This document shows, in pieces, positions 28,531-48,177 of a stretch of DNA of 64,000 nucleotides. The stretch spans positions 2,048,001-2,112,000 of the forward strand of contig CBDCXR010000004.1 in assembly GCA_965223845.1 (NCBI GenBank), read 5' to 3'. Position 1 is the stretch's first letter; each line of letters begins with the position of its first letter. This DNA comes from Planctomycetota bacterium. GTDB lineage: Bacteria > Planctomycetota > UBA8108 > SXIK01. Made by a program: the position numbers and the translations under genes. Below the pieces are notes generated by a model. That model searched no databases, was not told the DNA's origin, and worked only from the letters and a program-made list of their open reading frames with translations.

Positions 28531-31284
28531 ATGACGGGTAGGAATCTAGCGGTTTTGGCGACAGTGGTGTTCTTCGGCGCGGCCACGCCGACCCATGCGT
28601 TCGAAGTCCTCGGCGTCGGAACGGAGTCCCTTCTCGGCGACGACCTCACGGACATAGACAACGACGGGGACCAACTGCTCTACGCCGCGCCGGACGAGCT
28701 CGGATTCTTCGACGCCGAGTTCTTCTCGAGCGACGAGCCGGGCTTCGAGGGGGGTGAGTTCGCGTTCAACGTCTTCGACAACATTCTCGGGCCGGGGAAC
28801 GACAAGTGGTGTTGTGGAACCTCGTTCCCGCAGATCGTCGGCGCCGATTTCCGCAACACGCACGACGCGTCGTTTCTCCTCACTCACTTCACCGTTTCGT
28901 CGGCGAACGACGTTCCGGAACGCGACCCGCGCGTCTGGACGATCGAAGGATCGAACGACGGCGAATGCTGGGAGACAATCTTCATCCAGAGCGATCCCGC
29001 CGCGAGCCTGTGGACCGAACGCCTTCAAGTCATCGAGTTTCGCGAAGGCGAGGATTACGACGAGCAGGAACGCGCGTACTCCATGTTCCGCATGGTGACG
29101 CTCGCGACGGGGCTCGCGGGCGGTGCGTTCTTTCAAATCGGCGAAATCGAGTTCTTCGGGGAAGAAGATGATCCGCCGGCCGACTGCATCGGAGCGCAGT
29201 GCACGGATTCGGTCGAAAACGTCACTTGCGCGTTCGGCCCGGTGGGGGACGGTGAAGGGATCACGGTGTCCTGGGACGAGACCTGCGAGTGCGAGGATCC
29301 GACGCTTCTCCTCATCGACGGCGCAGAGGTCGCATCGGTCGAGCCGGGGACGACGACCGCGGAGATCCCCGCCACGGAGTTCCCCGACGGAGTTTTCTCC
29401 GTAGAGGTGCGGAACTGTAGCGGATTCGGTACGACCTGTAGCGGCTTTAAGACGACGTCAACCGGGTACATCGTCGGGAACTCTTGGCTAGCTCTCGGTC
29501 CCTTCGCTACGCCCGTCGCCTGTGACGGTGACGAAACCCAGCTTCTCACGAACCATATCGGACCGGACGAGACGCTTCAGTGTCAGTTCCCGGCCGACGG
29601 CGACCCCGTCGAGGGGTATGAGCCGGGTGATCCACTCTTTCCGGATCCCGATCTCGCGTCGACGTTCGGCTACCACCCCGACGCCCCGACAGACGATGAC
29701 GGGAACCCGATTTGGCGGCCCTACCAGGACGCGACGCCGACCGACGCCGACCTCGACTTCGATTCGGACATCGCCGGCAATCTGAACGAGCACGTTCTCT
29801 TCATCGCGACGTGGGTCGAGAACACGAGCGACGAACCTATCGAGATCTCCGCTTGCTTCGGAAGCGACGACGATCCCCAGGCTTGGCTCGACGACCAGCT
29901 CATCTGGAGCACCCCGGCGTGTCGCGGTCGCGGGGACTGCAACGACCAGGTGTTCTTCACTCTCCCGCCCGGGGTCCACGTGATCAAGCTGGGCGCCTGG
30001 GAACAGGGCGGCGGCTGGGGTGTCCGCTTCAGCCTTCGCGATGCGGCGACGCTCGAGCCGATCGTGGACCTCGCGGACGGCCTCGTCGCTCTTCCGATCG
30101 GGGCCTCGCCGTTCAGCGAAGACATCATCTTCCACGGCCGAACCCGTCCCGAAGGATTCGAGGAGCCGGAGTGCGGTGATGGCTGCTCAACGGTCACCGA
30201 TCTCACCTGTGAGCGCGACGACGACGGCTCGGTCGAGCTCGTCTGGACGAATCCCGACGGTTGCGACAGCGAGATCCGCATCCTCGCGGGGAACGAGGAG
30301 CTCGCCGTCCTTCCCGCGGGATCGGATACGTTCGCGATCGACGGCGGCGACCTCGAGTCCGTCTCGACCCTTTCCGTCGACAACGGGTCGCTGGCGCCCG
30401 CGAGCTGCTCGCTCATCGAGTTCAGCGATCTCCTTCTCGGAAACGATCTCACCGATCTCGACGACGACGGCGACCCGATCCTCTACGCACCTCCGGACGA
30501 TTTCGGCCTCTTCGACGCAGAGTTCTTCTCGAGCGACGAACCGGGATTCGAAGGCGGCGAGTTCGCGTTCAACGTCTTCGACAACGTCGTCGGCGGTGGG
30601 AACGAGAAGTGGTGCTGCGGTACGGTTTTCCCGCAGATCGTCGGCGCGGATTTCTCCGAGTTCGATGGCCCGTTCCGGCTGACTCACTTCACGGTCGCTT
30701 CGGCCAATGATACGCCCGCGCGTGATCCACGCGTCTGGCGCATCGAGGGCTCGAATGACGGCGAAGAGTGGACGACGATCTATTCGCAGGACGATCCCAC
30801 GAGCGCGGTGTGGACCGCGCGCAATCAAGTCGCTGTCTTCCGCGGCGGTCGTGACTTCCCCGAGCAAACCGAAGCCTTCATGATGTTCCGAATGATCACG
30901 GAAGCGACGGGGCTCACGGCGGGAGCGTTTTTCCAAATCTCCGAGATCGAGCTCTTCGGCGATGAGGGCGGAGGCCCGGTGGGCGCATTGCTCCTACCCG
31001 GGGACGTCAACCTCGACCGAGGTTTCAACATCGCCGACATGATCGCACTCCTCAATTTCCTCTTCGGCGACGGAACCCTCGACGCGTGCCTCGCGGCTCC
31101 GGATGTCGAGCCCGCGGAGTACACGGCAGCGGGATTCGCCGTGATCGACTTCAACGGGGACGGCGGCGTGAACATCGCGGACGCGATCGGAGGGCTGAAT
31201 CGGCTCTTCGGAGACGGCGGGCCGCACGTGCTCGGACTCGAGTGCATCCGTCGCCCGGGGACGTGCGTTAACGCGTGTCCGTAA
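28531..31284 (+). CDS. Secreted acidic protein with two discoidin/F5-8-like domains, a PA14-like central region and a C-terminal dockerin-like module
   Basis: GGAGG RBS and signal peptide. Duplicated 'AFNVFDN...KWCC...SANDxPxRDPRVW.IEGSNDG...FQI.EIE.FG' domain. GSDD...WLD...H.IKL PA14-like segment. LPGDVNLD..FNIAD / DFNGDGGVNIAD. Confidence 0.82.
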   Translation: MTGRNLAVLATVVFFGAATPTHAFEVLGVGTESLLGDDLTDIDNDGDQLLYAAPDELGFFDAEFFSSDEPGFEGGEFAFNVFDNILGPGNDKWCCGTSFPQIVGADFRNTHDASFLLTHFTVSSANDVPERDPRVWTIEGSNDGECWETIFIQSDPAASLWTERLQVIEFREGEDYDEQERAYSMFRMVTLATGLAGGAFFQIGEIEFFGEEDDPPADCIGAQCTDSVENVTCAFGPVGDGEGITVSWDETCECEDPTLLLIDGAEVASVEPGTTTAEIPATEFPDGVFSVEVRNCSGFGTTCSGFKTTSTGYIVGNSWLALGPFATPVACDGDETQLLTNHIGPDETLQCQFPADGDPVEGYEPGDPLFPDPDLASTFGYHPDAPTDDDGNPIWRPYQDATPTDADLDFDSDIAGNLNEHVLFIATWVENTSDEPIEISACFGSDDDPQAWLDDQLIWSTPACRGRGDCNDQVFFTLPPGVHVIKLGAWEQGGGWGVRFSLRDAATLEPIVDLADGLVALPIGASPFSEDIIFHGRTRPEGFEEPECGDGCSTVTDLTCERDDDGSVELVWTNPDGCDSEIRILAGNEELAVLPAGSDTFAIDGGDLESVSTLSVDNGSLAPASCSLIEFSDLLLGNDLTDLDDDGDPILYAPPDDFGLFDAEFFSSDEPGFEGGEFAFNVFDNVVGGGNEKWCCGTVFPQIVGADFSEFDGPFRLTHFTVASANDTPARDPRVWRIEGSNDGEEWTTIYSQDDPTSAVWTARNQVAVFRGGRDFPEQTEAFMMFRMITEATGLTAGAFFQISEIELFGDEGGGPVGALLLPGDVNLDRGFNIADMIALLNFLFGDGTLDACLAAPDVEPAEYTAAGFAVIDFNGDGGVNIADAIGGLNRLFGDGGPHVLGLECIRRPGTCVNACP

Positions 31285-32986: not shown

Positions 32987-34048
32987 TCAGCGTCCCTTCG
33001 TACGGGAGAAAAGGCGCCGCAAGTCGCCAAGCTCCGGCAACGCGAGCTGGCGATCGCGTGGGAGCCCGAGGCACCGCCCGGCGAGCCGCATCCACCCTCG
33101 GGGTCGTGGCAGCTCCCAGAGGGCGAGTCGACGATCACGGAGGATGCGGTCGAGTGTCCACGGTCGACCTTCGAACTCGCGCCCGAGGTCGAGCCCGCGA
33201 GGCGCCCACGCACTCTCTCGAGCGAGAAAGTCTGCGAGGCGCTGCAGATCTTCGGCCGCAGTCTCCGAGAGGGCGGAGACACGTTCGAGATCGATGTCCT
33301 CGCGACGCGCTTCGACGAGCAGCGCGAGATCGACAAACCAACCGAGGATGGGTCCCGTCGTATCCGCGTGCGAAGATGCGTGAACAAGGAGATGAACGAG
33401 AAGCGCGTTCGGCTCGAAGACGCGCACCCGGCGGGTGGCGAGTCGATCGGCCACGGCGACTTCGTAGAGTCGTTCCGCCGACTCAGATTCGAAGAGCCGA
33501 AACCGGTGGTGGACGTCGAACACGCCGCCGGCGGCGTCGGCGAACAGCGTCGCGTCCCGGCTGCGCTGAGCCACGGAGAACCCGAGCTCCACGAGCTCGG
33601 ACTCGGTCGCCTCACGCTCGTCCTCCTTAACGAGGAGATCGACGTCGCGCATGGTGCGCGCTCCCGGGTCGTCATAGACGAGGTGAACGAGCGCCGCGCC
33701 CTTGAGGAGCACGGGCGCGATACCACGGACGTAGAGCCGCTCGAGCACGGCGTCGAGTCGGGCGAATGCGAGTTCGTTCAATCGCCGAACTCGCTGGTAC
33801 GACCGAGACAGCGCAGAGCGAACATCGGGCGGAAGGATCTCGCCGGCCGCGCACTCCTTGAGCGTCGCCCACGCTCCCGCGACTAGGCGGTGCTCCGAGA
33901 GAAGCTGCACCCAACTCGACCACGCCGCCGCGTCGGCGCTCGCTCCGGCGTCGGCCCAACGCGTTTCGTCTGGAGAGCGGCGCTCGACGATTGCCGCGAG
34001 GACGAGTCGGAGGAGATCCTCCGCGGACTCACGCGTCGCGCGCGACAT
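32987..34048 (-). CDS. Nucleotidyltransferase family protein (NTP_transf_5-like)
   Basis: LLKGAAL...Y...R.M.DVDLLV, FDVHH, LVHLLVH...WFVDL. Overlaps the upstream gene by 20 bp. Confidence 0.88.
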   Translation of the reverse strand: MSRATRESAEDLLRLVLAAIVERRSPDETRWADAGASADAAAWSSWVQLLSEHRLVAGAWATLKECAAGEILPPDVRSALSRSYQRVRRLNELAFARLDAVLERLYVRGIAPVLLKGAALVHLVYDDPGARTMRDVDLLVKEDEREATESELVELGFSVAQRSRDATLFADAAGGVFDVHHRFRLFESESAERLYEVAVADRLATRRVRVFEPNALLVHLLVHASSHADTTGPILGWFVDLALLVEARREDIDLERVSALSETAAEDLQRLADFLARESAWAPRGLDLGREFEGRPWTLDRILRDRRLALWELPRPRGWMRLAGRCLGLPRDRQLALPELGDLRRLFSRTKGR

Positions 34049-34775
34049 CGACGTCGTCCGTCACCGCGTCGACGTAACCGAGATCGTAAAGCGTCCCCGC
34101 GATCGACAGCACGTCTCCTGCCACGTCGCGCTGATGCTCGCGGCCGAGCTGGTCACTGATCGCCCGGAGCGATCGCTTCGCATCGAAGAGAAGGAACACG
34201 GCTCGTGCGCTTTGATTGAGGACGCGCACCTCGGACGATCCCTCCCTGAGGAGCAGCAGCTCGACGTCCAGATCGCGGACAGTCACGCCGGAATTCGGCC
34301 TCAGCACGGAGTCAAAATCGAGCTCGGACACACACAACTCCCCAGGTTCAAATCCGGTCGCCGCCGGTGTTCCGAACCGCGGAACCCAGCGCCGGACCTT
34401 CCGCAAGAATCGTGTCCAAAGCGCGTCGATGACGGGAACGAGCTCCGCGCGACCGAACACGACGTCGGTGCTCGTCCACTCGTCGTCGAACGAGTTGCCA
34501 TCGCCGCGCGTAAGGCACTCCGGTCCCGAGTCCGTTTCCCGCAGCGCCTTTACTCGATGGACGACCACCGCGCGGCCGTTCCACAGCGTGACGATTTCGC
34601 CGACGATCGGGGGCGCGACGGAGCCGCGAACGAGGACCACTCCGCCAGCGGGGATCGTTGGCTCCATGCTTCGACCGCGGGTGCGGACCCGCGCGCGACC
34701 GCCGTAACTGCGGAAGCGAGAGAGGTTCGCGGGAAGATGGACCGGAGACTTCCTGACTACGCGCGCGGCTGACAT
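34029..34775 (-). CDS. S24/S26 signal-peptidase-like domain fused to a C-terminal PqqD/RRE domain
   Basis: GRSMEPTI (catalytic Ser), VVHRV, TRGDGN. C-terminal 'V.VRDLDVELLLL......VRVLNQSARAVF..FD..RSL..I...L...V..DV......L...GYV' fits the PqqD pattern. Confidence 0.85.
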   Translation of the reverse strand: MSAARVVRKSPVHLPANLSRFRSYGGRARVRTRGRSMEPTIPAGGVVLVRGSVAPPIVGEIVTLWNGRAVVVHRVKALRETDSGPECLTRGDGNSFDDEWTSTDVVFGRAELVPVIDALWTRFLRKVRRWVPRFGTPAATGFEPGELCVSELDFDSVLRPNSGVTVRDLDVELLLLREGSSEVRVLNQSARAVFLLFDAKRSLRAISDQLGREHQRDVAGDVLSIAGTLYDLGYVDAVTDDVDVARDA

Positions 34776-34906
34776 CGCTAGTCTCGCAGAGGCGACGGTA
34801 CCGGATCAGTCCTCCGGTCCACTCGGGGCGCGAAGTCGAACGCCCCGGGCGCGGGATGGAACCCGCGCGTCGCGCAGCGACGGCGGGAACAACTGCCGAT
34901 GGAAAC

Positions 34907-34946
34907 CGATCGCCTCCCGGAGGAATTCCTTTCCGGGAAGCGATCG
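34907..34946 (-). terminator. Stem-loop (leaky terminator or stabiliser) just 3' of the precursor peptide gene
   Basis: Minus strand CGATCGCTTCCCGGA-aaggaattcc-TCCGGGAGGCGATCG-GTTT: a 15-bp stem with one G:U pair. Confidence 0.7.
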
Positions 34947-34988
34947 CATACTGCCTCTAGGGATCTAATCTCTAGAGTTGCCCCGAGC

Positions 34989-35105
34989 TCAGAAGCTGAA
35001 GCAGCCGAACTCGACGCCTTCGAGAATCTCGCGCGCGTCGACGGTGTCGACGGACGGAGCTTCCCAATCGAAACGAGGTTCGATGCGTTCCACTCTTGCC
35101 TCCAT
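34989..35105 (-). CDS. Putative RiPP precursor peptide MEAR-VERIEPRFDWEAPSVDTVDAREILEGVEFGCFSF (38 aa, or 34 aa from GTG 35093)
   Basis: Hand-translated, below the ORF-track cutoff. WxxPxV leader motif, GGAGG 5 nt before GTG 35093, promoter upstream, stem-loop downstream, PqqD/peptidase gene next. Confidence 0.8.
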   Translation of the reverse strand: MEARVERIEPRFDWEAPSVDTVDAREILEGVEFGCFSF

Positions 35106-35146
35106 GGAAAACGGACGAGTAAAAGGATCCCCTTACGACAGGTGCA

Positions 35147-35176
35147 ATTGTCCGAGATGCCGGCTCCACTTGTCAA
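35147..35176 (-). promoter_or_regulatory. Sigma-70-type promoter for the precursor operon
   Basis: Minus strand TTGACA (35176-35171)-N18-GACAAT (35152-35147). Confidence 0.6.
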
Positions 35177-35246
35177 CGAAGCGAGGCTCGAGACCACGTG
35201 TCGGGTCGTTCGGTTCGCCTCGTGTTCGGTAACAGGAGATCGACGC

Positions 35247-36236
35247 TTGTCCACAGTTCGTTCCGCTGCGATTCCGGTCTTCGACGAGATCGTCCGGGTC
35301 GAGCTCGATGCGCCGGGCCTGGCGGCGACGTTGAGGCGAATCTACCCGAGAGCGACGGACGGGCGCGAGACCGACGTCCCGGTCATCGTGGCGCGCGTCG
35401 ACCGGGGAAACGCGGCATCGACCGAACGGCCGAACGGCCAAGGCTCCGGTAATCGATCGGGCGAATTCCGTGCCGAATTTCGGTTCGACCCCCCGGCGCC
35501 TCTGCGTGAGCTCTTCCCGCCGGAACTCGACGCTCGATTCGAGTGGGCCGACGGCCTCTGCGTGGACCGTAGCGCGGGAGTTCGCTTTCAGGAAACCGAA
35601 TGTGCGGTGATCGCCGAGGGACGCCCAGAGACCGCAACAGAAGTTCTCCTCTTTCACTACGCGCTCGCGCGACTTCGACGCCGCCGGCCGGAGACCGTCG
35701 TACTTCACGGGGCGGCGGTCGTCCACCCGCACGGTGGTGCGGTCATCCTCGTCGCGCCCTCGGGCGCGGGCAAATCGACGCTCACGACGGCGCTCTGCCG
35801 ACACGGTTGGGGCTTCTTTTCCGACGAGATCGTCGCGCTTCACGACGGCGTAGTTTTCGCCTATCCGCGGGCGATCGGTCTCCGCGACGGTGCGGAGTCA
35901 CTTCGCTCGTTCGAGCACGTTAGCGCCCGCGGTGAAACAAAGCACCTCGTCGATCCGCTCGACCTCGGCGCGACCGAAGCAGGAGCGTTCGCGCCACTTG
36001 CCGCCACTTTTCTGCTCGAATCGTTCGGGGAATCCGTCGAGCTGCAGCCGACCTCGCCGACTCTCCTCGCGTCGCGCATACTTCCTCACTGCTACACCGG
36101 GAGATCCGATCCCGCCGCACACCTCGTTCGGCTCGCTTCCACGATTCGCTCGAGTCGCGGAGCGATTCTCCGGCCCGGATCACCCGATGACACCGCGTCT
36201 CGCGTGAATGAGTGGATCGAGACAGTCGGGACATGA
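35247..36236 (+). CDS. HprK-related P-loop kinase
   Basis: AGGAG 8 nt before TTG 35247. VLHGAAV, APSGAGKSTL (Walker A), GWGFFSDE. The ORF-track start at 34899 would overlap the precursor gene antisense. Confidence 0.87.
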   Translation: MSTVRSAAIPVFDEIVRVELDAPGLAATLRRIYPRATDGRETDVPVIVARVDRGNAASTERPNGQGSGNRSGEFRAEFRFDPPAPLRELFPPELDARFEWADGLCVDRSAGVRFQETECAVIAEGRPETATEVLLFHYALARLRRRRPETVVLHGAAVVHPHGGAVILVAPSGAGKSTLTTALCRHGWGFFSDEIVALHDGVVFAYPRAIGLRDGAESLRSFEHVSARGETKHLVDPLDLGATEAGAFAPLAATFLLESFGESVELQPTSPTLLASRILPHCYTGRSDPAAHLVRLASTIRSSRGAILRPGSPDDTASRVNEWIETVGT

Positions 36237-36804
36237 TCGTGATCGGTTTCCGCCCCAAACATCGCTCTTACCTCGTGTGCTCGCGCGGCAACGGCGACTG
36301 CGGTTCGCAAGAACGTCTTATTGACCCTGTAGGCTCTATTCGCTTAGCGTGAGTGCCGAGGGCGAACAGACCACGGGTCGATTCGCTCGAGAAACAAGCC
36401 AAGGGTAGTCGCTCCGACCGCGGAGCGTTGGTTTGAAAGGGCATACGGTGGCAGTGTTTCGAGGGCAGCATTCTCGATCCCATCGCCTGGCGATGCATGG
36501 AGGGAGATCCGTGCCGACACGGACCGGTCCTCTGTGCGCTCGGCGTGCGGTCGAAGGTCGGCTGCTCCCCGCACCGCCGCGTGGCCGCGATTGGGTCGCC
36601 CCGAGGGGTTGAGGGCCCGGGGCGCACTTTCGGCGGAAGCCTCGCCGCCGAGAGTCGGAGAGGTAGAAAAGCGACCGTACGAGGACGCGCGTCGCAAGGG
36701 AGATACCGAGAAGGGGGTACTGCGGAACCTAAACCGAATGTTCGAAGTTGTGGGAGTCGCTGCTGGTTGCGACTCCGAATCCGGTTTCTTGGGAGCCTTT
36801 CGAT

Positions 36805-38604
36805 ATGAGAATCAAACTCTTTGCCATCGCTGCGGTGCTCGCGTTCTCCGCGGCGGAGCTTCGGGCTCAAGGCTTCGTGCTGCTGACGGGCGACGACGCC
36901 GACGATTTCGGGCACTGCTCCGGAGTGGGCGGCTGCGGAGGCCTCTTCCCTAACGCCATCGCGGATGCCGTAGGGAACAGCGGCAACGGCGGCGCGCCGA
37001 CGGACATCATCGCCGTCGGAGTCAACAGCAGTTCCGCGCTGAACAACCTCAATGCCTGGTCGAACGGTGGCGCGGGGAGTGCGGCTTCGATCCTGGGTGC
37101 CGCGGTCACGATCACCCACGCCCGGACGGTAGCGGAGATCGCAGCGATCAACTTCGCGAACTACAAGCTGCTCTACGTTCCGTCGAACTCGATCAATACG
37201 GGCGGCGGTATCAACAATACGCAGCTCGCGGCGCTCAACGGGCGTGCAGCGGACATCGCGAACTTTGTGAACAACCTGAATGGCAGTTTGATCGCGCTCA
37301 CTGAAGCCGGATCCGTCGGTGCTTGGGGTTGGCTTCCGCTCCCGCTCACGACGGCGAACGCCTCGTTCACCGGCGCTGCGGTTACCGCGGACATGGCCGC
37401 GATCTCGCCGGGAACGACGAGCGCGAACTTGAGCCACTGCTGTTTCCACAACGTATTCACCGGCCCCCTCCTCGTTGACGGCACTTACGCTGGACTCCGC
37501 GTCCTCGCCACCGCGACGAACGCGCCCGGCAACCTGAACGGTCGCCCCGTCTACCTCGGAAGTCGCCAGACCATCATCCGGACGGAAGACTGTTCCGACG
37601 GCCGAGACAACGACAACGATGGTCTCATCGACAACGACGACCCGGACTGTCAGGTCTGCGGTGACGGTGACATCGACCCAGGCGAAGACTGCGACGACGG
37701 GAACAACGTCGACGGCGACGGTTGCGACCGCGATTGCAACAGCGAGGCGCCGTCCGACTCGGATCCGCCGACCTGCGCGATCACGGGTTTCTCGGCCGGA
37801 CCGCCGACCCAGGTCCAGGCCACCGTCCAGGACACCGGAAGCGGAATCGACACCATCCAGGTACTCGTTCTCGAGAACGCGGTCGCCTCGTGGACCCAGA
37901 GTCCCGCGCAGACGACGCCGATCGTCATCACAGCGACGAAGATCGATCAGTCGAAGCGGGCTCGCATCCTCTTCCGCGTGACCGACGTCGCGGGCAACTT
38001 CGTAGACTGTGATCCGTACATCGTCAACCTCGACGTCCCGGCGGGCGAAACCTATGAGGAAGTCCTCGACGACGTCCCCGACTTCGAGGGTTGGATCACG
38101 ATCTACAACAAGGTCCCCGGTTTCCAAAGCCTCGAGTTCGACGTGAACGGGGATGTCTACAACATCGACGGACTCGCCTCCTACGAGACGCACTCGTTCC
38201 AGGTTTTCGACTCCCTGTATCCGGGGAACGAGAACGTGATCAAAATCCGCAGCGCGGACGGTCTCGGCGGAGTCGGCACGGTGTTCATCGCCGAGACGCC
38301 GGGAGCCTTACCGAGTGACTCGCTCGGGCTCTTCGAGCGCGGCGACACGAACGTCGACGGGACGATGGATCTCTCGGATCCGGTCTCGACGCTGAACTAT
38401 CTCTTCAGCGGCACGGCGACCCTCCTCTGCGAGGACGCGGCGGACGCGAACGACGATGGCTTCGTCGATCTCTCCGACGCGATCCACTCGCTCAACTTCC
38501 TCTACACCGGTGTGACGGACACGCTGCCGCAGCCCTACGGTGCATGCGGCGTCGACGGAACGTCGGACACGCTCACCTGCAGCTCGTATCCCGAGTGCCT
38601 GTGA
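36805..38604 (+). CDS. Secreted protein: Asn/Gly/Ala-rich N-terminal domain, Cys-rich (myxococcal/DUF4215-like) repeat, beta domains and C-terminal dockerin-like module
   Basis: GGGAG RBS, signal peptide MRIKLFAIAAVLAFSAAELRA, EDCSDGRDNDNDGLID.DDPDC, CGDG.IDPGEDCDDGN..DGDGC..DC, FERGDTNVDGTMDLSD...CEDAADANDDG. Confidence 0.85.
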   Translation: MRIKLFAIAAVLAFSAAELRAQGFVLLTGDDADDFGHCSGVGGCGGLFPNAIADAVGNSGNGGAPTDIIAVGVNSSSALNNLNAWSNGGAGSAASILGAAVTITHARTVAEIAAINFANYKLLYVPSNSINTGGGINNTQLAALNGRAADIANFVNNLNGSLIALTEAGSVGAWGWLPLPLTTANASFTGAAVTADMAAISPGTTSANLSHCCFHNVFTGPLLVDGTYAGLRVLATATNAPGNLNGRPVYLGSRQTIIRTEDCSDGRDNDNDGLIDNDDPDCQVCGDGDIDPGEDCDDGNNVDGDGCDRDCNSEAPSDSDPPTCAITGFSAGPPTQVQATVQDTGSGIDTIQVLVLENAVASWTQSPAQTTPIVITATKIDQSKRARILFRVTDVAGNFVDCDPYIVNLDVPAGETYEEVLDDVPDFEGWITIYNKVPGFQSLEFDVNGDVYNIDGLASYETHSFQVFDSLYPGNENVIKIRSADGLGGVGTVFIAETPGALPSDSLGLFERGDTNVDGTMDLSDPVSTLNYLFSGTATLLCEDAADANDDGFVDLSDAIHSLNFLYTGVTDTLPQPYGACGVDGTSDTLTCSSYPECL

Positions 38605-40573: not shown

Positions 40574-41059
40574 CTAGTCCTCGATCCCCATGGACAGTAC
40601 GCACTCCTTCGGGGAGCCGACCCCACGGAGGCACTCGAGCTCGAGGAAGCCACCCCGCTCGAGCGCCTGGAGCTCGAGCGGGGCGTCTCCGCCGCGAATC
40701 GTGTCGGTAAACGGCATCGCCCGGTCCCCTCGCCGCGGCCGGTAGTCGATCTTGAGCTCAGCGCCGTTCGGCACGGTCAGTTTCGCGATGCGCGTCTTCT
40801 CATCGCTAATGGCGATCGAAACACTCACCGAGCTTCCCTCGCGGACCGTGATCTTGCCGGCACGGAGTGCGCTCGCGGGACGGACGGTGAGCTCCTCTGC
40901 GGTGATCGCCGGCGAGAGAGCGCCGGCGAACCCACGGAGGGTCTCCTTCCACTCGTCGATGGAGCTCGAGTCCAGCTCGACGTCACCGGAATCTCCGCCG
41001 AAAACGCCGAACGCGAATACGATCGCGAGCACAATCAGGATGACGATGACGAGTTTCAC
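40574..41059 (-). CDS. Small N-terminally anchored protein, CIS-operon associated
   Basis: GTG start overlaps the upstream stop. N-terminal TM helix and a beta-rich domain with two C-terminal Cys. Confidence 0.75.
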   Translation of the reverse strand: MKLVIVILIVLAIVFAFGVFGGDSGDVELDSSSIDEWKETLRGFAGALSPAITAEELTVRPASALRAGKITVREGSSVSVSIAISDEKTRIAKLTVPNGAELKIDYRPRRGDRAMPFTDTIRGGDAPLELQALERGGFLELECLRGVGSPKECVLSMGIED

Positions 41060-42390
41060 TACTGTCCGATTCTCCGGATCGCGCCGGGATCGATCCGCAT
41101 CTCGAGTTTTTCGCGAAGCTGGGGGTTCGCCTTGATGACTTCGCTCCAGATAACGGGACGAACCGACACCTTCTGCGTCGACACGGTGAGATTGACTTTC
41201 GCGCCGGGAAGAACGCGGGACCTCGCGCGCGGGATCTGATTGAGGACCGTATTCTCCGCGAGCGACTTGTTGTGCTTCTTCGAAACTGTACCGACGGCGA
41301 GACCGACGCGCTGAAGCTGAACGACCGCATCGGCGAGTGATTTCCTACCCAGGTTGGGCATCTGATTGAACACGGTCGCCACGAACGGGCGCGACTTCGC
41401 CGTCGTTCCCGCCGCGTTCCCTACCGTAAGCACGATGTTGAACTTGCCGGCCTTCTTATAGGTGTGCGACACCGAAGCCCCGCTCTTTGGTCCGCTGCCG
41501 TCGCCGAAATCCCACACCCACGAAGTGGGATCACCCTTCGACGTATCGTTGACCGTAATTCCCCAGTTCCCGGGATTGAGATGGCCGCCCCGCGGCACCG
41601 CCGTGAAGGTCGCGGCCAGCGTCTCGGCCGGCGGAGGTTCGACCGCGGGAGCGGTCACCACGATCTCCTTCGTCGCGTCGTTCGTGTCGTCACCGCGGAC
41701 GATCTCGAGCGTCACCGCGTAGGTGCCGGCTTCCGTGAACTCGAACTCCGCGGTTTCTCCCTCGGCGGTGTTCAGTCCGGCGAAGTTCCAGTGCCACTCC
41801 TCCGGCCCGCCGACCGAGTTGTCGGTGAACTTCACCGTGTGTGGCGCGACGCGCTCGCCCTCCGCGGGCTCCATCGTGAAGTCCGCCTCGAGCGGATCGC
41901 CGGAGCAGGTCGCGATTCCGATGATGAGACCGATGACACCGAGGAGGAGGATCACCCCGAGCAGGATCCACGGCCAGATCTTCGGCTTCGGCTTCGGATC
42001 ATCGTCTTCGATGACCGGAACGACCGGAGCTTCGATCGCAAACCGGCACGGCGCACTCTGCCCGGAGTCGTTGTCCGGATCGACCGTCGATGCGACGACG
42101 AGGCGGTACGTGTAATCGCCCGCCGGGGCCTCGGCCGGCGCCGCGAGGAGCACGGTGAACTGCTCGTTTCCATCGACGTCGAACGTGCGAACGTCCTCGC
42201 CTTCGCTCGTCCCTTGAATGCTGAGCCAGCCCGGCTCAGCCGGAGCGTCGATGTCGAGCGACGCCCGCGCGCGGATCTCTCGCCCCGAGACGTTCGTCAC
42301 CGAAAAGGTGCGCTCGCCGCGCCGCTCGTCCCCGGAGAGAGTGACGACCTCGTCGGCCGCCGGGCGGATATCAAAAACGGACATGTTCAC
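41059..42390 (-). CDS. Bitopic membrane protein: N-terminal Ig-like (COG1470-like) domain, TM helix, 2x PKD, PASTA
   Basis: GGAGG RBS. 'FSVTN...GWLSI...P..APAGDY.YRL', TM IWPWILLGVILLLGVIGLIIG, PKD motifs (VKFTDNS...WHWNF, SWVWDFGDG...HTY.KAG), PASTA (MPNLGRKSLADA...GL.VG...VLNQ.P...VNLTVS). Confidence 0.85.
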   Translation of the reverse strand: MNMSVFDIRPAADEVVTLSGDERRGERTFSVTNVSGREIRARASLDIDAPAEPGWLSIQGTSEGEDVRTFDVDGNEQFTVLLAAPAEAPAGDYTYRLVVASTVDPDNDSGQSAPCRFAIEAPVVPVIEDDDPKPKPKIWPWILLGVILLLGVIGLIIGIATCSGDPLEADFTMEPAEGERVAPHTVKFTDNSVGGPEEWHWNFAGLNTAEGETAEFEFTEAGTYAVTLEIVRGDDTNDATKEIVVTAPAVEPPPAETLAATFTAVPRGGHLNPGNWGITVNDTSKGDPTSWVWDFGDGSGPKSGASVSHTYKKAGKFNIVLTVGNAAGTTAKSRPFVATVFNQMPNLGRKSLADAVVQLQRVGLAVGTVSKKHNKSLAENTVLNQIPRARSRVLPGAKVNLTVSTQKVSVRPVIWSEVIKANPQLREKLEMRIDPGAIRRIGQ

Positions 42391-42439
42391 TACCTCCGTT
42401 GCGTGGACGGGTCACTCGCGGCGGGAGCTCGCCGGTGAC

Positions 42440-42955
42440 TCACGTCCCTTGGGTGAATTCGTACGTGACGTAGGCCGGCTTCTCGCGGGCGATGACGCGC
42501 TCGATGAGAGGAAGAAACGCTCTCGCCTCCACGGGAACATCGACCTCGAAGTGAAACGACTTCTTCCCACTCCGCACCTCGAAGCCGGGGACGCCCGTGA
42601 GCGTCGCGAGGAATTCCGCGAGCCCGCGCTTCGTCCCGCGCCATTTACTCAAGCTTGCGCTCCTCGCGATCAATTCTCGAAGATGGCCGAGCCCCGGAGC
42701 CGCCACCGCGCCGAGAGACGGTTCCGATCCGACCGGCGAGAGGACGCGCTGGAGATCGAGCCAATGGGTGAGATAGAGGAGAAAGGCCGGCGGCGCCCGC
42801 CGAGCGTCGAAGTACTCGTCGAAGTTCTCGAGCGCACGTTCGGGATTCGCGTGAAGCGCCTCCATCGCCGCGAGGACGCCGCTCAAGACATTGCCGTCGC
42901 GAACGGAACGCTGAAAGATGCCCGGGAGCAAGCGCCGGATGTCATCAGTCTTCAC
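42440..42955 (-). CDS. CIS baseplate protein (P2 gpI / phage tail protein I-like)
   Basis: LLPGIFQ, FDARRAP..FL.YL..W, WRGT..GL..FL, EKPAYV.Y. Confidence 0.88.
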   Translation of the reverse strand: MKTDDIRRLLPGIFQRSVRDGNVLSGVLAAMEALHANPERALENFDEYFDARRAPPAFLLYLTHWLDLQRVLSPVGSEPSLGAVAAPGLGHLRELIARSASLSKWRGTKRGLAEFLATLTGVPGFEVRSGKKSFHFEVDVPVEARAFLPLIERVIAREKPAYVTYEFTQGT

Positions 42956-45608
42956 GCGCGGTCTCCTCGTCGTCGCTCACGACATCGATGCGATGCTCTC
43001 CCGAGCAGAAGAGCCACGTCGGAGGTACGGCCACGCGCTGGCTGAACGAGCGCCCGGAGCAGTTCTCGTACGGAGGCTCGTCCGTCGGTTCATCCGTGCG
43101 CTCAGCGCTCTCGCCCGCTCGAGAAAGCTCGATGACACGGCGGCGGATCCCCTCCTCGCCGCCCCCGAGGGCGACGCGTCCGGTCGGATCGACCGCGAGC
43201 GCCCGCACGGGAAAGAACCGACCGGAATCGCGGAGCGGAAGTCCGCACGAGACGTGCGGGGTCGTCCATGCGGCGCCGTCGACTCCGAGGTCGAGCTCGG
43301 CGATCCCGCCGCGAAACGTTCCGGCGAGGACGCGCTTTCCGTCGTCCACGATCGCGAGCTCGTAACAACTTCCGGCGTTCCAGTCGCGACCGACGAGCTC
43401 GAACTTCTCGTCAGAGGCCGCGATGCTCCGGATCTCACGGCGAAAGCAACCTTCGCCTTTGTCCGCGCCAGATTTCGCGAACGCCGCGGCCCAGAGAAAC
43501 GCGCGCCCGCCCACCGGCTGGACGAGGAGCGAGTGAATGTTTTTTCCCCGAAGTCCGAAGTACTCGAAACTTTCGCCCCCGTTCTCGGAGAGATGAACTC
43601 CGCCGAGATTCTCTGCCGCGACGGCGATCCAATCCGTTCCCTTCGCGTCGCGCCAAACGCGGACCGCCCACATCCCGAGATCCGGATCGGACGGGAGTGC
43701 GATCACCGGCCGCGGCGTCACCGGTCCGCGCCGCCAGTCGTCCTCGAAGACGATCTCCTGCAGTCCCTTACTGGTTGCAAGGAGGAGGCGCGGGAGGCTT
43801 CCTCGCGATGTCCACGCGAGATCGTTCACTCGGTGCCCGAGCTGCGACACCCGGTCCCAGCTTTCGCCGCAGTTCTCCGACACGTAGACGGCCGAGCGTT
43901 CACCTTTCCGCTCCGTGGCGACCGCGACGATCCCCGCTTCCTCGGGGTGGACCGCGACGTGTGCGACTTCTTCGTCGGCGAATCGTCCCGCCGGTTCCCA
44001 GCCCTCGCCGTCGTTCATGGAGCGAAAGAGGATCGGTCCGCTTCCGGCGAACCACGTCCGCGACTGAAACTCGTCCGCGACGATGCAGCTCACGTCTTCG
44101 CTCGGCGCTTCGTCGACGTGGAGGGAGATCTCCTCGACCCGCAAGACTCGAGCGTCGCTCAGAACGAGGTCGTAGATGCGCGAGACGTGGAGCGGCGTAC
44201 CGAACCGCCAGCCCTGGTAGCCCTCGCTCGGGAACGGATTGATCGCGGCGTGAAGCCGTTCGAGAACACGCTCCTCGACCGCGCGGCGATCCGCCTCGCG
44301 GTGCGCGACGACGCGCGCCCGAACGCTCACTTTCTTGTAACGAGCCCAGTCGACGGAACAGACGGTTCCGAGCGGGCTCCGGCGGTCGAGATCACGCGCA
44401 ACCGCCTGCAGGGTGCTCTCCTTCTTCACGCCTTCGACATCTTCGACGCTCACTCTTCGCGCGGCGTCGTCATCGCCGATTGTCGGCACGATGAGCACTT
44501 TCACCGCGCCGAGCCGCCCGTGTCGCCAGACATCGGATTCCGCGTAGGCCTTCGCCCGTGCGACTTCACCCGAGAGGCGCTTCGCAAGGAGTTCGTAGTC
44601 GTCCGCGGTGACGGCGCGCTCGAGGCTCCGCAGTTCCTGTGGTCCGCGGACGAGCGCGTTCTCGAGGCTTTCGGGAGCCCGACCGCCGGTGCCCCGATCG
44701 ACGTTCGTCACCTTCACGCCGGGGATCTGATCCTTGAGCGCGGTCAGAGTCCCTTCGGCGACGTTGCCGTCGACGCCGCCGCCGCAGCGATACCACACGC
44801 GAATCTCGCGACCGGATTTCGGGACCTCCGCGAGCGCGACCGGACGCGCCGCCTCGCCCCCGTCGTGGCCGTCGACGCGATCGACGGCGGGTGCGAACAC
44901 GATCCGTCCGTCGACGCGATGCGCCACAAAGACGTGCCGCTCGTCTCCGAGCTCTGCGAAGTGACCCTCCTCGCGTTCCCGCCAGATACGAAACAGCTTC
45001 TCGCCGTAGCGGATCGCGGGGACGCGTTCGTCGTCCGCCTCTTGCGGATCCATCTCGACCGCGACGGTCAGGTCGAAATCCGATCCCGTCGGAGCGACAA
45101 TCGGCGGACGCGTGACCTCGAAGGTGAGTCCGGGCTCTCCCGTCGCAATCCCGAGAAGCTCTCCACGAACGAGCTCGCAGTGGTGCGCGACGACTTCGAC
45201 GGAGGCCGCCCCCGGCTCGATCGCGGCTTCGTCCGCGGTCGTAAAGATCGGCGCGGGACGATCCCCGCTCGCGCGCGCGACCGTCACTCGTGTTCCGAGC
45301 GGAATCTCGATCCGCCGGTCCGTTTTGCCGCCGGACCGCGAGAATACGAGCCGCGCCGTCGCGGCCGTCGGCGCCTGAAGCTGGACGCCGATGAGCCGGA
45401 GGAACTCGACGTAGGCCTTCTCGGGAATCCGATTCAGCCGATAGATCATCACATCCGTCAAGTACGCGAAAGCCTCGAGCAGAATTCGACCCGGGTCACC
45501 GGCGGACTGATCGTTCCAACTGGGACAGGCGCGCTTCATCTCACGGAGCGCGTCGGCGACGAGGTCGTCGTAGGTGCGGTCGTCAAGGTTCGGCGACGGA
45601 AGCGACAT
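42945..45608 (-). CDS. CIS baseplate J-like protein (Afp11/Pvc11-like) with C-terminal beta-propeller extension
   Basis: MSLPSPNLDDRTYDDLV...W.D.S.GDPG..LLEAFA, GG..GNV, RAVTADDYE. BNR-like repeats RSMNDGEGWE, VSENCGESWD, LSENGGESFE. Ends L.CSGEH. Confidence 0.92.
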   Translation of the reverse strand: MSLPSPNLDDRTYDDLVADALREMKRACPSWNDQSAGDPGRILLEAFAYLTDVMIYRLNRIPEKAYVEFLRLIGVQLQAPTAATARLVFSRSGGKTDRRIEIPLGTRVTVARASGDRPAPIFTTADEAAIEPGAASVEVVAHHCELVRGELLGIATGEPGLTFEVTRPPIVAPTGSDFDLTVAVEMDPQEADDERVPAIRYGEKLFRIWREREEGHFAELGDERHVFVAHRVDGRIVFAPAVDRVDGHDGGEAARPVALAEVPKSGREIRVWYRCGGGVDGNVAEGTLTALKDQIPGVKVTNVDRGTGGRAPESLENALVRGPQELRSLERAVTADDYELLAKRLSGEVARAKAYAESDVWRHGRLGAVKVLIVPTIGDDDAARRVSVEDVEGVKKESTLQAVARDLDRRSPLGTVCSVDWARYKKVSVRARVVAHREADRRAVEERVLERLHAAINPFPSEGYQGWRFGTPLHVSRIYDLVLSDARVLRVEEISLHVDEAPSEDVSCIVADEFQSRTWFAGSGPILFRSMNDGEGWEPAGRFADEEVAHVAVHPEEAGIVAVATERKGERSAVYVSENCGESWDRVSQLGHRVNDLAWTSRGSLPRLLLATSKGLQEIVFEDDWRRGPVTPRPVIALPSDPDLGMWAVRVWRDAKGTDWIAVAAENLGGVHLSENGGESFEYFGLRGKNIHSLLVQPVGGRAFLWAAAFAKSGADKGEGCFRREIRSIAASDEKFELVGRDWNAGSCYELAIVDDGKRVLAGTFRGGIAELDLGVDGAAWTTPHVSCGLPLRDSGRFFPVRALAVDPTGRVALGGGEEGIRRRVIELSRAGESAERTDEPTDEPPYENCSGRSFSQRVAVPPTWLFCSGEHRIDVVSDDEETARED

Positions 45609-46072
45609 CAGGATTCTCCGCCGAGATGGAGCGGAAGGAGGATGCGATCGCGCTCACGCGACGGACGCACGCGATACTCGAGTTCGACATCGAGGCGTTC
45701 CGGAATCTCCGGGTGCGGCGCGGCGTCGACGCGGAGGACCTCCGCCCGCGGCTCCCAGCGCTCGACCGCGCTTCGGACATAGTGGATCGCGAGGCCGGCG
45801 GTCGTCGCATCGTTCGGCGAAAACACGAGACGTCGGAGATCACACCCGTACTCGGGCCGCATCACGCGCTCTCCAGGATTCGTGGTGAGGAGAATGAGGA
45901 GCGCCTGACGCACCGACGCCGCTTCGCTCACCATCGCAATTCCGCCGGTCGGTGAGAGGACGGCGCCGACGACCGGACGCTCGCGCTCGGTGCCGTCCAC
46001 GACCGAAGTCGCACCGTCCGACACGATCATCGGATGCTCGAATCGCCAAGCTCGGTAGCGGGCCTCCGGCAT
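45608..46072 (-). CDS. GPW/gp25 family baseplate protein (Afp9/Pvc9-like)
   Basis: SVRQAL.ILL.T.PGERVMRPEYGC.L...WEPR. Confidence 0.93.
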   Translation of the reverse strand: MPEARYRAWRFEHPMIVSDGATSVVDGTERERPVVGAVLSPTGGIAMVSEAASVRQALLILLTTNPGERVMRPEYGCDLRRLVFSPNDATTAGLAIHYVRSAVERWEPRAEVLRVDAAPHPEIPERLDVELEYRVRPSRERDRILLPLHLGGES

Positions 46073-46414
46073 TCAGCGTTCTCCCACGTAGCTTTGTCCC
46101 GGACTGAGGACGTTGTATTTCACCGTTCCGGGAGGGGTTCCGTTCGTTAACCCGGACGTCCCGACGAGACAAACGCGCTTTCCCTCGATGCGAATGAATC
46201 TCGAGTACGAGACCGATTCCGTCACCGTGACCGTGTTCGTGCACGGCTTGATGCCGACGCCGACGTTCGGGCACCCGCTGATCCCGACCCCGAGCGAATA
46301 CGGCTCGACGAGCACTCGATCACCGTCGATCTTGACGAGCTCTTGATGCGCCTGGATCTCGACGCCGCCTCCGTGCGCGCAGCTGAGCCGTGCCTTCTCG
46401 GTCAGGAATTCCAC
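46073..46414 (-). CDS. PAAR-like spike-tip protein (DUF4280 / Afp10-like)
   Basis: A.LSCAHGG, ISGCP, KPC...V...S..IRI.G, PGQ..V. Located between the spike and gp25 genes. Confidence 0.8.
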   Translation of the reverse strand: MEFLTEKARLSCAHGGGVEIQAHQELVKIDGDRVLVEPYSLGVGISGCPNVGVGIKPCTNTVTVTESVSYSRFIRIEGKRVCLVGTSGLTNGTPPGTVKYNVLSPGQSYVGER

Positions 46415-46428
46415 TCGTCGGCCTCCTC

Positions 46429-48177
46429 TCAGTTTGCGTCGCCGTCCGCGTCGTCACGGCCGGTACGCTCGGTGTCGCCCGAATCGGACTCTTCGCTGGG
46501 TTCCGGCTCAGGCTTCGGCTCGGAGGGAGCGTGCTCGAAGTCGATGTGGTCGGCGCGCAGCCGGATGCCTTTCCCCGGGGCGGCGATGTCGATGTCGCCC
46601 TCCGCTCGGAGCGAAACCAGATCGGGCGCGAGAGCGAACGAATGTCCCGTGCTCGTCTCGATCTCCACGCTCTCCGCCCGATCGTCGAGGCTCACTCGGT
46701 GCCCAGCCGGGGTCTCGAGCTCGATCGACTCGTTCGCGTCGTCGAATGCGAGACGGTGTCCGCCCGGAGTCCGAATCCGGATCTCCTCGACTTCGTCGTC
46801 GAGCTGGATCTCGTGTCCCCCCGGAGTTCTCAAAGTGAAACGCCGCACGCTCCCGTTCACGACGCCGCCGCCGTCGATCGTACCGCGATGCCCGTAGATG
46901 CCGCCGAGCACGATCGCGAACGCGGGATCGTGATCGGCGAACATGACGACGACGTTGTCGTCCACATCGGGAAGAACGACGAGGCCCTTCTCATCCCCGG
47001 CTCCGGGCGCCATGACTTCGAGCCACGACGTCTCGAGGTCGCCGTGGCTCGGAAGACGCACTTTGACGCGGCCGAGCTCCTCGGGGTCGTCGACCGACGT
47101 AACGACGGCGATCGTCGCGCAGGCGGCTCCACTCGACGCGGTCGGGCTCACACGAGGCGGAGGAGACGGGAGGTCGGTCGAGATCTCCGTCACGAATCCG
47201 CGGGTACCGTCGATGGCGTGCCGCACATCGCCGAGGACGAATCGCCCGCTCGAGCGCCGGCCGAGGCCGGAAACCTCCACGACGTCGCCGGCGCGAAGGG
47301 TCACGTCTCCATCCGTGACACCGGAAAAGCGCGATTCGTGGGCGGCGCGGCGGTCGAGCTCCGCCTGCGCTCGAGCGACGGCTTGCGCCGCGTCCGCGAC
47401 GGGGACGTCCACGATCGTTCGCTCGCCCGTTCCGCCGACATCGCCGGGGGCGAGCGCGACGTCGATCGACGTCCCGACACGAGGAGCGTCCACCGTCTCA
47501 CGGAGGAACGTCGCGGTCATGGGATCCCACCCGAGGGTCGAGACTCGCCGGCAGGTCGTTTCGGCATTCACCTCGACCTTCGCCTCGAAGAGATTCTCCC
47601 CGAGCTCGAGCGTGTGCTCGTCCGCGTGGCCATCGAGGGTCAAGATCCGCAAGCGATCGCCATCGAGCACGAAGTAGGCGCCGCAGAGTCTCGCGCGCTC
47701 GTCGAGCAAGTCGAAGTCGCTCTGACGATGCTGAAAGACGTGACGCCAGAGGGGACTCTCGACCTCGCACTCGACATCGATCCCGTCCTCGCGGACGAGC
47801 TCGGCCGCGAGATCGGCGAGGGTGACTTCGGTGTGGACTCGCTGCGGCTGTCGCTTCCGAAGGCGATGCAGGCGGTCGTAAGCTCGAACTCGAAGTTCAG
47901 ATTCGCGCGCCGGACCGCAGGCGACTTCGACCGCAGTAATGTCTCCCTCAAAGAGGAGGCCGCCGCTGTCAGGAAGAGCGACCCGCAGCGCCCGGCCGAC
48001 GGGAAACGCGTCGGCCGCTTCTCCCAAGTCACTCGGCTCGTAGACGGAGAGCTCACACATCGCCGGAAGGGAGAGTCGCTGGCGAGCGACCGTGTGGCCG
48101 ATTTTCTCGGCGATGCCGCCGGCGAGCTCGCTTCCGTCCACTTCAATGCTGAGCCGCGGAAGGACATCGATACTCAT
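46429..48177 (-). CDS. VgrG-like spike / baseplate assembly protein V (Afp8/Pvc8-like)
   Basis: ATGA overlap with the upstream gene. FEGDITAVE, YDRLHRL, QSDFDLL, DDPEELGRVKV.LP, LPDVDD.V.V.F, and TP.GH beta-helix repeats. Confidence 0.92.
   Translation of the reverse strand: MSIDVLPRLSIEVDGSELAGGIAEKIGHTVARQRLSLPAMCELSVYEPSDLGEAADAFPVGRALRVALPDSGGLLFEGDITAVEVACGPARESELRVRAYDRLHRLRKRQPQRVHTEVTLADLAAELVREDGIDVECEVESPLWRHVFQHRQSDFDLLDERARLCGAYFVLDGDRLRILTLDGHADEHTLELGENLFEAKVEVNAETTCRRVSTLGWDPMTATFLRETVDAPRVGTSIDVALAPGDVGGTGERTIVDVPVADAAQAVARAQAELDRRAAHESRFSGVTDGDVTLRAGDVVEVSGLGRRSSGRFVLGDVRHAIDGTRGFVTEISTDLPSPPPRVSPTASSGAACATIAVVTSVDDPEELGRVKVRLPSHGDLETSWLEVMAPGAGDEKGLVVLPDVDDNVVVMFADHDPAFAIVLGGIYGHRGTIDGGGVVNGSVRRFTLRTPGGHEIQLDDEVEEIRIRTPGGHRLAFDDANESIELETPAGHRVSLDDRAESVEIETSTGHSFALAPDLVSLRAEGDIDIAAPGKGIRLRADHIDFEHAPSEPKPEPEPSEESDSGDTERTGRDDADGDAN

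Follow-up and report, generated by a model that had tools for sequence, protein, structure and literature searches.

A probable linear polyphosphorylated peptide-type cassette with a fused leader peptidase and an overlooked candidate precursor gene in a Planctomycetota bacterium

What does a bacterium make with a signal-peptidase-like protease, a peptide kinase, and a nucleotidyltransferase encoded side by side, when no peptide is annotated for them to act on? The question is raised by a cassette at positions 32987-36236 of a 64,000-nucleotide stretch of contig CBDCXR010000004.1 (hereafter, the window) from a Planctomycetota bacterium (assembly GCA_965223845.1; 7.9 Mb in 4 contigs, 91.7% complete). 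The cassette contains four genes, three on the minus strand and one transcribed divergently on the plus strand (Table 1), and the window annotation has no precursor gene. A preliminary description of the DNA drew attention to a minus-strand open reading frame (ORF) at 34989-35105, missing from the annotation, and read the set as a ribosomally made and post-translationally modified peptide (RiPP) system, possibly of a distinct class, in which a short linear core is phosphorylated, perhaps further decorated, and released by an S26-type protease. We conclude that the locus probably encodes a working pathway of the type recently described in Bacillota for linear polyphosphorylated peptides (LPP), with the 34-38-aa product of the small ORF as its substrate.

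The case begins with the peptide gene itself. The ORF is present exactly as first quoted, with the product MEARVERIEPRFDWEAPSVDTVDAREILEGVEFGCFSF. Its 5′ end reads ATG GAG GCA AGA GTG, and a GGAGG at 35099-35103 lies 5 nt ahead of the in-frame GTG at 35093, so that the peptide has 38 aa if translation begins at the ATG at 35105 and 34 aa if it begins at the GTG. The leader carries the motif W14-E-A-P-S-V-D-T, and the short predicted core terminates in ...GVEFGCFSF. The other signals reported for this ORF were also recovered: a promoter-like TTGACA-N18-GACAAT (35176..35147), found at one site compared to a mean of 0.1 in dinucleotide shuffles of the region, and a stem-loop of roughly 15 bp (34907-34946), whose stem of ~15-17 pairs begins 42 nt downstream of the stop codon. 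The 96-nt minus-strand stretch 34900-34995 folds at -41.9 kcal/mol (z = -3.0; 2 of 200 shuffles were its equal), no T-run follows the hairpin, and a terminator scan found no T-run terminator. The GC content by codon position (0.64/0.41/0.69) is coding-like but weakly so, and the kinase frame has an open 5′ extension to which the ORF runs antisense, codon for codon; whether the small ORF is a gene could therefore not be settled by its composition. Along with its homologues described below, the peptide has no match in Pfam or NCBIfam at E ≤ 10, PqqA and other precursor families included.

Comparison with other genomes was more informative. The fusion gene of the cassette has full-length homologues (36% identity) at two genome loci, L005 and L006, both from Planctomycetota metagenome-assembled genomes. 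The same three enzymes stand together there, with the nucleotidyltransferase homologue directly behind the fusion gene, as in the window. Scanning the flanks of these homologues for short frames, as the preliminary description had proposed, yielded a 32-aa ORF in both, MQDNV(I/L)VWEPPKIETIDAAELLAGVEFVGITF, located directly downstream of the nucleotidyltransferase rather than ahead of the fusion gene as in the window. At both loci, the divergent kinase is 66 bp from the fusion gene, which leaves no space for a peptide gene at the window's position. The window peptide and its L005/L006 counterparts align over 26 residues, end at the identical position, and share the pattern W-E-x-P-x-[VI]-[DE]-T-[VI]-D-A-x-E-[IL]-L-x-G-V-E-F-x-x-[FI]-[ST]-F-stop. 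When the window peptide was compared to all 194 six-frame ORFs of L005, the local score was 76, whereas shuffles scored 35.5 +/- 3.6 (maximum 50; 0 of 500 reached 76), and phmmer linked the window peptide to the homologous ORF with E = 4.3e-5. Between L005 and L006, the ORF differs by seven codon changes, six synonymous and one conservative non-synonymous (I/L), while the regions on either side are far more diverged than the ORF. Every copy of the peptide gene has GGAG(G) 4-5 nt ahead of its start and a hairpin behind its stop. It is this comparative evidence, not composition, that leads us to take the small ORF as a real gene, with its sequence kept in two lineages while its position in the cassette shifted. 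The genes flanking the cassette differ between the window and L005/L006; thus, the four genes travel as a unit. The case also shows that gene callers overlook the precursor.

The reality of the small ORF also depends on where the divergent kinase begins. The plus-strand frame is open from 34899 to 36236, and a start at 34899, which the preliminary description considered fatal to its reading, was rejected: that ATG sits within the hairpin, and the homologues align only from 35247. The database gene call (329 aa, tagged PF27840) likewise starts at the TTG at 35247, from which the N-terminus aligns with the L005 and L006 kinases at 39-40% identity over the full length. With a start near 35247, the kinase does not cover the small ORF, and the 470 bp that separate the fusion gene from the kinase become a divergent control region holding it. 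On the other side, the nucleotidyltransferase gene starts before the fusion gene ends, with an overlap of 20 nt. The kinase was correctly described as HprK-like: it matches TIGR04352 (HprK_rel_A) at 1.1e-14, with 54.2 bits against a curated cut-off of 200 bits, and has an intact Walker A motif (APSGAGKST). The nucleotidyltransferase matches PF14907 (NTP_transf_5) at 4.2e-39 and retains its DVDLL motif. A word-index search with the kinase returned five weak relatives, and neither the cassette genes nor the peptide have a paralogue in the bacterium's own genome.

The third enzyme is the most unusual. As proposed at the outset, it joins a peptidase to a PqqD-like RiPP recognition element (RRE). 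The N-terminal part (approximately residues 24-125, nt 34401-34706) is an archaeal/ER-type (Sec11/SipW-like) signal-peptidase domain, with residues 24-111 matching archaeal-type signal peptidase I (TIGR02228, 1.8e-10; PF00717, 1.4e-4); the C-terminal part (approximately residues 150-240, nt 34056-34328) is the RRE, with residues 172-235 matching PqqD (PF05402, 3.5e-4; TIGR03859, 1.9e-5). A profile built from four fusion sequences matches the catalytic subunits of the human signal peptidase, SEC11A (7p2p, 1.5e-11, positions 29-120) and SEC11C (1e-10) through its first half, and the lasso peptide RRE TfuB1 (6jx3, 0.0057, positions 158-234) and PqqD (0.023) through its second. Ser36, His73, Asp92, and Asn187 occur in all four full-length fusions, which have no invariant Lys; this identifies the enzyme as a Ser-His-Asp (Sec11/SipW-type) protease, not a Ser-Lys one. 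No hydrophobic segment is visible ahead of its peptidase domain.

Whether the two halves could act on the peptide was addressed by modeling the complex of fusion and peptide from our own alignments, much as the preliminary description had proposed for the peptide and the RRE. The model scored 0.71 (runs of 0.67, 0.71, and 0.72), compared to 0.00 for all three controls; 116 of 157 solved complexes attain that mark, and so do 2 of 215 mismatched pairs. At least 90% of the contacts agree among runs, and the pLDDT (predicted local distance difference test) of the partner is at least 61. In the model, peptide residues 14-21 (WEAPSVDT) are paired with fusion residues 183-190, on the strand that contains the invariant Asn187, and with the helix 214-232, while peptide residues 31-37 contact residues 30-37 and 68-73, including Ser36 and His73. 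The model thus supports binding of the leader by the RRE and placement of the peptide tail at the peptidase active site.

This combination of enzymes has a published counterpart. LPP are made by the lppA-K-B-S-D-N clusters of Bacillota, named in May 2026 (Popov et al., Nat Commun 2026; PMC13381572). LPP clusters encode a SipW-like peptidase, LppS (triad S29/H68/D93), a discrete RRE, LppB, the kinase LppK, the NTP transferase LppN, and an MsbA-like pump, and their products are linear peptides (PMC13381572). The HprK-like LppK puts several phosphates on core Ser3; LppS cleaves after T(-1), for which LppB is required; and a leader Tyr determines RRE specificity (PMC13381572). Deletion of lppN was without visible effect, leaving its role unanswered by the authors, and supplement file 1 lists both lppN and pbaN as PF14907 (PMC13381572). 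LPP were described as restricted to Bacillota, although five Brocadiales peptidases (cluster 6 of the sequence similarity network) appear in the supplement, three of them with a discrete non-LPP RRE (PMC13381572).

The window cassette has in common with LPP an archaeal-type signal-peptidase-like leader peptidase with a Ser/His/Asp triad, a PqqD-like RRE, an HprK-like kinase, and a PF14907 nucleotidyltransferase, all recognized here from sequence, as well as a [Y/W]xxPxV precursor leader motif and the lack of a macrolactam cyclase, from which we expect the product to be linear. In a comparison by eye of the three catalytic motifs, Ser36/His73/Asp92 correspond to the LppS triad. The window's W-E-A-P-S-V is a leader motif of the form [Y/W]xxPx[L/V/I], to which lasso and LPP RREs bind (PMC13381572). 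There are also several differences. The peptidase and the RRE, which are discrete proteins in LPP, form a single polypeptide here, with a linker and the RRE taking the place of the hydrophobic C-terminal tail of LppS; the leader motif has Trp in place of Tyr; the precursor is only 32-38 aa with a predicted core of ~8-9 residues, compared to a 45-aa core in LppA; an MsbA-like exporter belongs to the LPP core cluster and is not found near the cassette among 22 window proteins; and the host belongs to Planctomycetota, not Bacillota. A natural peptidase-RRE fusion is not mentioned in the main text of the LPP article, where 'fused' occurs 6 times, each time in reference to a tag (PMC13381572). Thus, the claim of a distinct class falls, as the class is already in print as LPP, while the proposed mechanism is essentially the published pathway and gains support from it. 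One correction concerns the acceptor: the conserved hydroxyl belongs to the next-to-last residue, Ser in the window and Thr in L005/L006, whereas in paeninodin it is the C-terminal residue.

The biochemistry of LPP and paeninodin suggests how the pathway may operate, and phosphorylation, the order of the steps, the cleavage site, and what the nucleotidyltransferase does are inferred from it. The cassette would be a self-contained, four-gene RiPP system of LPP type, with the 34-38-aa precursor expressed from its own promoter. Its W-E-x-P-x-V leader would be bound as an added β-strand by the PqqD-like RRE of the fusion. Within the short core at the C-terminus, the HprK-like kinase would phosphorylate a hydroxyl residue, most likely the penultimate Ser37 (Thr in relatives), as no other hydroxyl beyond the stretch bound by the RRE is conserved. 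That phosphate may be extended by the PF14907 nucleotidyltransferase, and the Sec11/SipW-like half of the fusion would remove the leader, presumably leaving a linear modified peptide of ~5-9 residues.

Table 1. Features of the cassette in window coordinates.
Feature	Position	Strand	Basis
Nucleotidyltransferase NTP_transf_5 (PF14907), 353 aa	32987..34048	-	Pfam 4.2e-39, residues 40-261
Signal-peptidase/PqqD-like RRE fusion, 248 aa	34029..34775	-	TIGR02228, PF00717, PF05402 matches
Hairpin between precursor and fusion genes	34907..34946	-	Fold of 34900-34995
Candidate precursor peptide gene, 38 or 34 aa	34989..35105	-	ORF listing and L005/L006 homologues
Sigma-70-like promoter match TTGACA-N18-GACAAT upstream of precursor gene	35147..35176	-	Consensus match only
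HprK-like peptide kinase, 329 aa	35247..36236	+	TIGR04352, database gene call, homologue alignment

A number of observations weigh against this interpretation. Beyond W-x-x-P-x-V, the LPP motif YxxPxVLxHQxIxFET|xxS is absent from the window peptide, as is core Ser3. By the LPP register, Y(-16) to T(-1), cleavage would fall behind E29 in the window peptide and behind an Ala in L005, with cores GVEFGCFSF and GVEFVGITF, in which position 3 is Glu and not Ser. The model disagrees with this register: it brings residues 31-37 to the active site instead, and its confident contacts omit residues 29-30, where the scissile bond would be set. LppK rejected Thr in place of Ser (PMC13381572), and Thr is the candidate site in L005 and L006. 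The model score itself may partly reflect memory of solved RRE-leader complexes, and every family match of the fusion and kinase lies below the curated cut-offs. Conservation of the peptide amounts to only two independent lineages, L005 and L006 being closely related. Finally, no MsbA-type exporter is encoded nearby, i.e., among the 22 predicted proteins between 18.2 and 48.9 kb of the window, nor does one adjoin the cassette in L005 or L006.

Phosphorylated lasso peptides are the other well-known setting for these enzymes. The linear precursors of paeninodin and pseudomycoidin are substrates of an HprK-like kinase, and in the latter the nucleotidyltransferase adds a hexose to the phosphate (PMC8498205). 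The window cassette has the HprK-like kinase, the nucleotidyltransferase, and an RRE with a WxxP-type leader in common with these systems (PMC8498205), and differs from paeninodin in its candidate acceptor, penultimate here and a C-terminal Ser there. The asparagine-synthetase-like cyclase and B2 cysteine protease of lasso pathways are not at the locus: in agreement with the preliminary description, neither a lasso cyclase nor a B2 protease nor a radical SAM enzyme is among the 22 window proteins, which also include no ABC exporter. A genome-wide search for a cyclase acting in trans, suggested at the same time, found MnmA, the tRNA thiolase, as the only Asn_synthase match, and the only Transglut_core3 match, 5.7 Mb distant, was a generic transglutaminase-like protein of 545 aa; by these two models, no lasso cyclase was detected in the 91.7% complete genome. 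The NCBIfam HPr-rel-A system offers a further parallel. TIGR04352 (HprK-related kinase A) is the best NCBIfam match of the kinase, and the L005 fusion, though not the window fusion, weakly matches TIGR04353 (PqqD family chaperone; 0.0048, 17.8 bits vs. a 35-bit cut-off). However, all scores fall far below the equivalog cut-offs (54 vs. 200 bits).

How common is this arrangement? The fusion is rare, with 250 matches at E ≤ 0.001 among 1.84 billion cluster representatives; among the 150 of these that were listed, only four besides the query (P0008, P0009, P0011, and P0091) cover both halves. A word-index search with the fusion returned the bacterium's own protein alone (1 of 1729 candidates), and a metagenome scan gave 29 loci, all matching within residues 1-152, i.e., the peptidase half only. 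Similarly, one of 61 relatives' genomes matched besides the bacterium's own, through the peptidase part only, and in the class of the L005 genome, the fusion profile matched 9 of 42 genomes, two of them with full-length fusions. When 14 of 38 fusion-matching loci were scanned with Pfam, most proved to be SipW/TasA-camelysin, sortase, or nickel superoxide dismutase maturation contexts, not peptide cassettes. An actinomycetotal locus (L007, 5525-6354) encodes a nickel superoxide dismutase next to an S24/S26 peptidase, the known SodN/SodX maturation pair, and illustrates that most distant matches to the peptidase half are not peptide cassettes.

The other enzymes of the cassette are far more widespread. 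A profile made from three kinases matched 73 of 401 sampled Planctomycetota genomes at E ≤ 1e-5, probably including bona fide HprK. Twenty kinase loci were retrieved, and the 8 flagged by phmmer were scanned with Pfam: NTP_transf_5 lies beside the kinase in all 8 and a Pfam PqqD match in 6, while 4 have a PRMT-like methyltransferase, 2 a radical SAM enzyme, and none a peptidase. PqqD-kinase-NTP_transf_5 triads are thus common in Planctomycetota. One or two small ORFs, in tandem where there are two, precede the triads (4644-4934 and 4858-5244 in L073; 863-1330 in L087; 3960-4220 in L091; 3979-4227 in L079) and are candidate precursors that differ from the window peptide, with the form RRxFLKK...[YW]xxPx[IL], in which a twin-arginine-like stretch is followed by an RRE-type motif. 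The triads of L073 and L079 adjoin polysaccharide-export genes.

Larger cassettes add a maturase. In the window's own class, locus L093 (6142-10644, minus strand) combines in a single operon an RRE, a radical SAM enzyme, a precursor, an HprK-like kinase, an S26-like peptidase, and NTP_transf_5; the 66-aa precursor has a YEKPAV leader and three Cys, and ends in GS, i.e., with a C-terminal Ser. Neither the window peptide nor the L005 peptide resembles it significantly (204 and 121 of 300 shuffles, respectively, scored as well). In another Planctomycetota family, L104 (5768-12184; also L105 and L106) encodes a 70-aa precursor, a kinase, an S26-like peptidase with a hydrophobic tail, and a discrete RRE, followed by a 943-aa C39-like/β-helix protein and a convergent radical SAM/SPASM gene; no nucleotidyltransferase was seen within the L104 stretch examined. 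The L104-L106 peptidases are the closest split relatives of the window fusion (E of 1e-15 to 1e-17). The precursors at these loci (DYTPPTIKTYTSEEILEEIGPAQAC...) include, in L104 and L105, the leader pattern [YW]xxPx[VI]xT....E[IL]L that the window peptide also has; each is the best six-frame match there, but a weak one, with 23 and 16 of 300 shuffles reaching the score, and in L106 the precursor is not the best match. We therefore use this likeness as a motif-level lead only. All of these cassettes have a soluble signal-peptidase-like protease, an HprK-like kinase, an RRE, and a [YW]xxP precursor in common with the window, and differ by a radical SAM/SPASM maturase, Cys-rich cores that often have a terminal Ser, and separate peptidase and RRE genes. 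We found no description of such radical SAM/kinase/S24-S26 peptidase/nucleotidyltransferase cassettes in the literature. The window cassette is one recombination of a widespread kinase-nucleotidyltransferase-RRE module, in a rare form that has the protease fused to the RRE and no maturase.

These relatives raise the possibility that the four genes are a remnant of a larger radical SAM cassette (RRE, radical SAM/SPASM enzyme, precursor, kinase, S26 peptidase, and nucleotidyltransferase), now productless or dependent on a distant maturase. That radical SAM/SPASM cassettes occur in the same class (L093) and elsewhere in Planctomycetota (L104-L106), and that the L104/L105 precursors have a leader pattern in common with the window peptide, speaks for such an origin. 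We nevertheless regard decay as improbable: the catalytic motifs (Ser/His/Asp, Walker A, and DVDLL) are all intact, the set without a radical SAM gene is kept in two distant lineages under purifying selection, no radical SAM gene was found among the proteins scanned within ~15 kb, and a Cys cross-link would not be conserved, as the core has one Cys in the window and none in L005/L006. A more radical objection is that the small ORF is not translated at all, its likeness between loci reflecting a conserved RNA or DNA element, with the true substrate encoded elsewhere. An open frame does run antisense to the ORF in codon register, and at the 65% GC of this genome, shadow ORFs are common. Yet, the similarity is at the protein level and links loci in which the ORF occupies different positions in the cassette; the codon changes between L005 and L006 are six synonymous to one non-synonymous; and each start is preceded by GGAG(G), each copy ending at the same residue. 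We consider this explanation very improbable, the least plausible of all.

It is also conceivable, though we judge it unlikely, that the peptide is a scaffold or cofactor precursor comparable to PqqA or MftA, carried by a PqqD-type chaperone, and that its last few residues become a small intracellular molecule. The precursor is very short, its C-terminal G-V-E-F-x-x-[FI]-[ST]-F is conserved, no exporter or immunity gene lies nearby, and the best matches of the RRE are PqqD models; the pattern W-x-x-P ... G-x-E may also resemble PqqA. However, the cassette lacks a radical SAM enzyme, an oxidase, or any other cofactor-building enzyme, the peptides match neither PqqA nor another precursor family at the E-value given above, and the enzyme set is that of LPP. 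An LPP-type pathway acting on the small peptide thus accounts best for the locus. A bolder form of it, to which we assign a small but somewhat greater chance than to any of the alternatives just discussed, is a minimal, exporter-less version in which the merged enzyme releases a phosphorylated and perhaps nucleotidylated or glycosylated molecule of ~5-9 residues, serving as a signal or cofactor-like compound inside the cell or in the envelope, and not as a secreted antibiotic. If true, kinase, nucleotidyltransferase, and RRE would form a general peptide-tailoring module, which bacteria other than Bacillota have repeatedly recombined with different proteases and maturases.

The LPP-type reading has consequences for the Bacillota systems as well. 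It would extend to Planctomycetota a pathway characterized, in the LPP article, only in Bacillota (PMC13381572). There, the LppS-LppB complex was only modeled, and LppS alone was poorly soluble (PMC13381572); a natural peptidase-RRE fusion offers independent genomic ('Rosetta stone') support for that complex, and a single soluble fusion polypeptide may ease structural work because of the poor solubility of LppS. Along the same lines, the very short precursor would be a simple substrate for finding the function of the PF14907 nucleotidyltransferase.

The surroundings of the cassette were also inspected. Large secreted proteins are encoded on either side of it on the plus strand (28531-31284 and 36748-38604); both terminate in a dockerin-like GDxNxDGxxxxxD repeat, and the former has duplicated F5/8 type C-like domains. 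Farther along, the minus strand (41059-48929) carries a run of genes resembling a contractile injection system or phage tail, encoding a PKD/PASTA protein, a Tail_P2_I/Gp48-like protein, Baseplate_J, gp25, a VgrG-like hub (Phage_GPD plus Phage_base_V), and a contractile injection system tube protein; the run probably represents either an extracellular contractile injection system or the tail module of a prophage, unrelated to the cassette. In the assembly as a whole, the 15-kb contig C1 has a GC content of 48%, compared to 63-68% in the other three contigs, and may be a foreign or contaminant piece.

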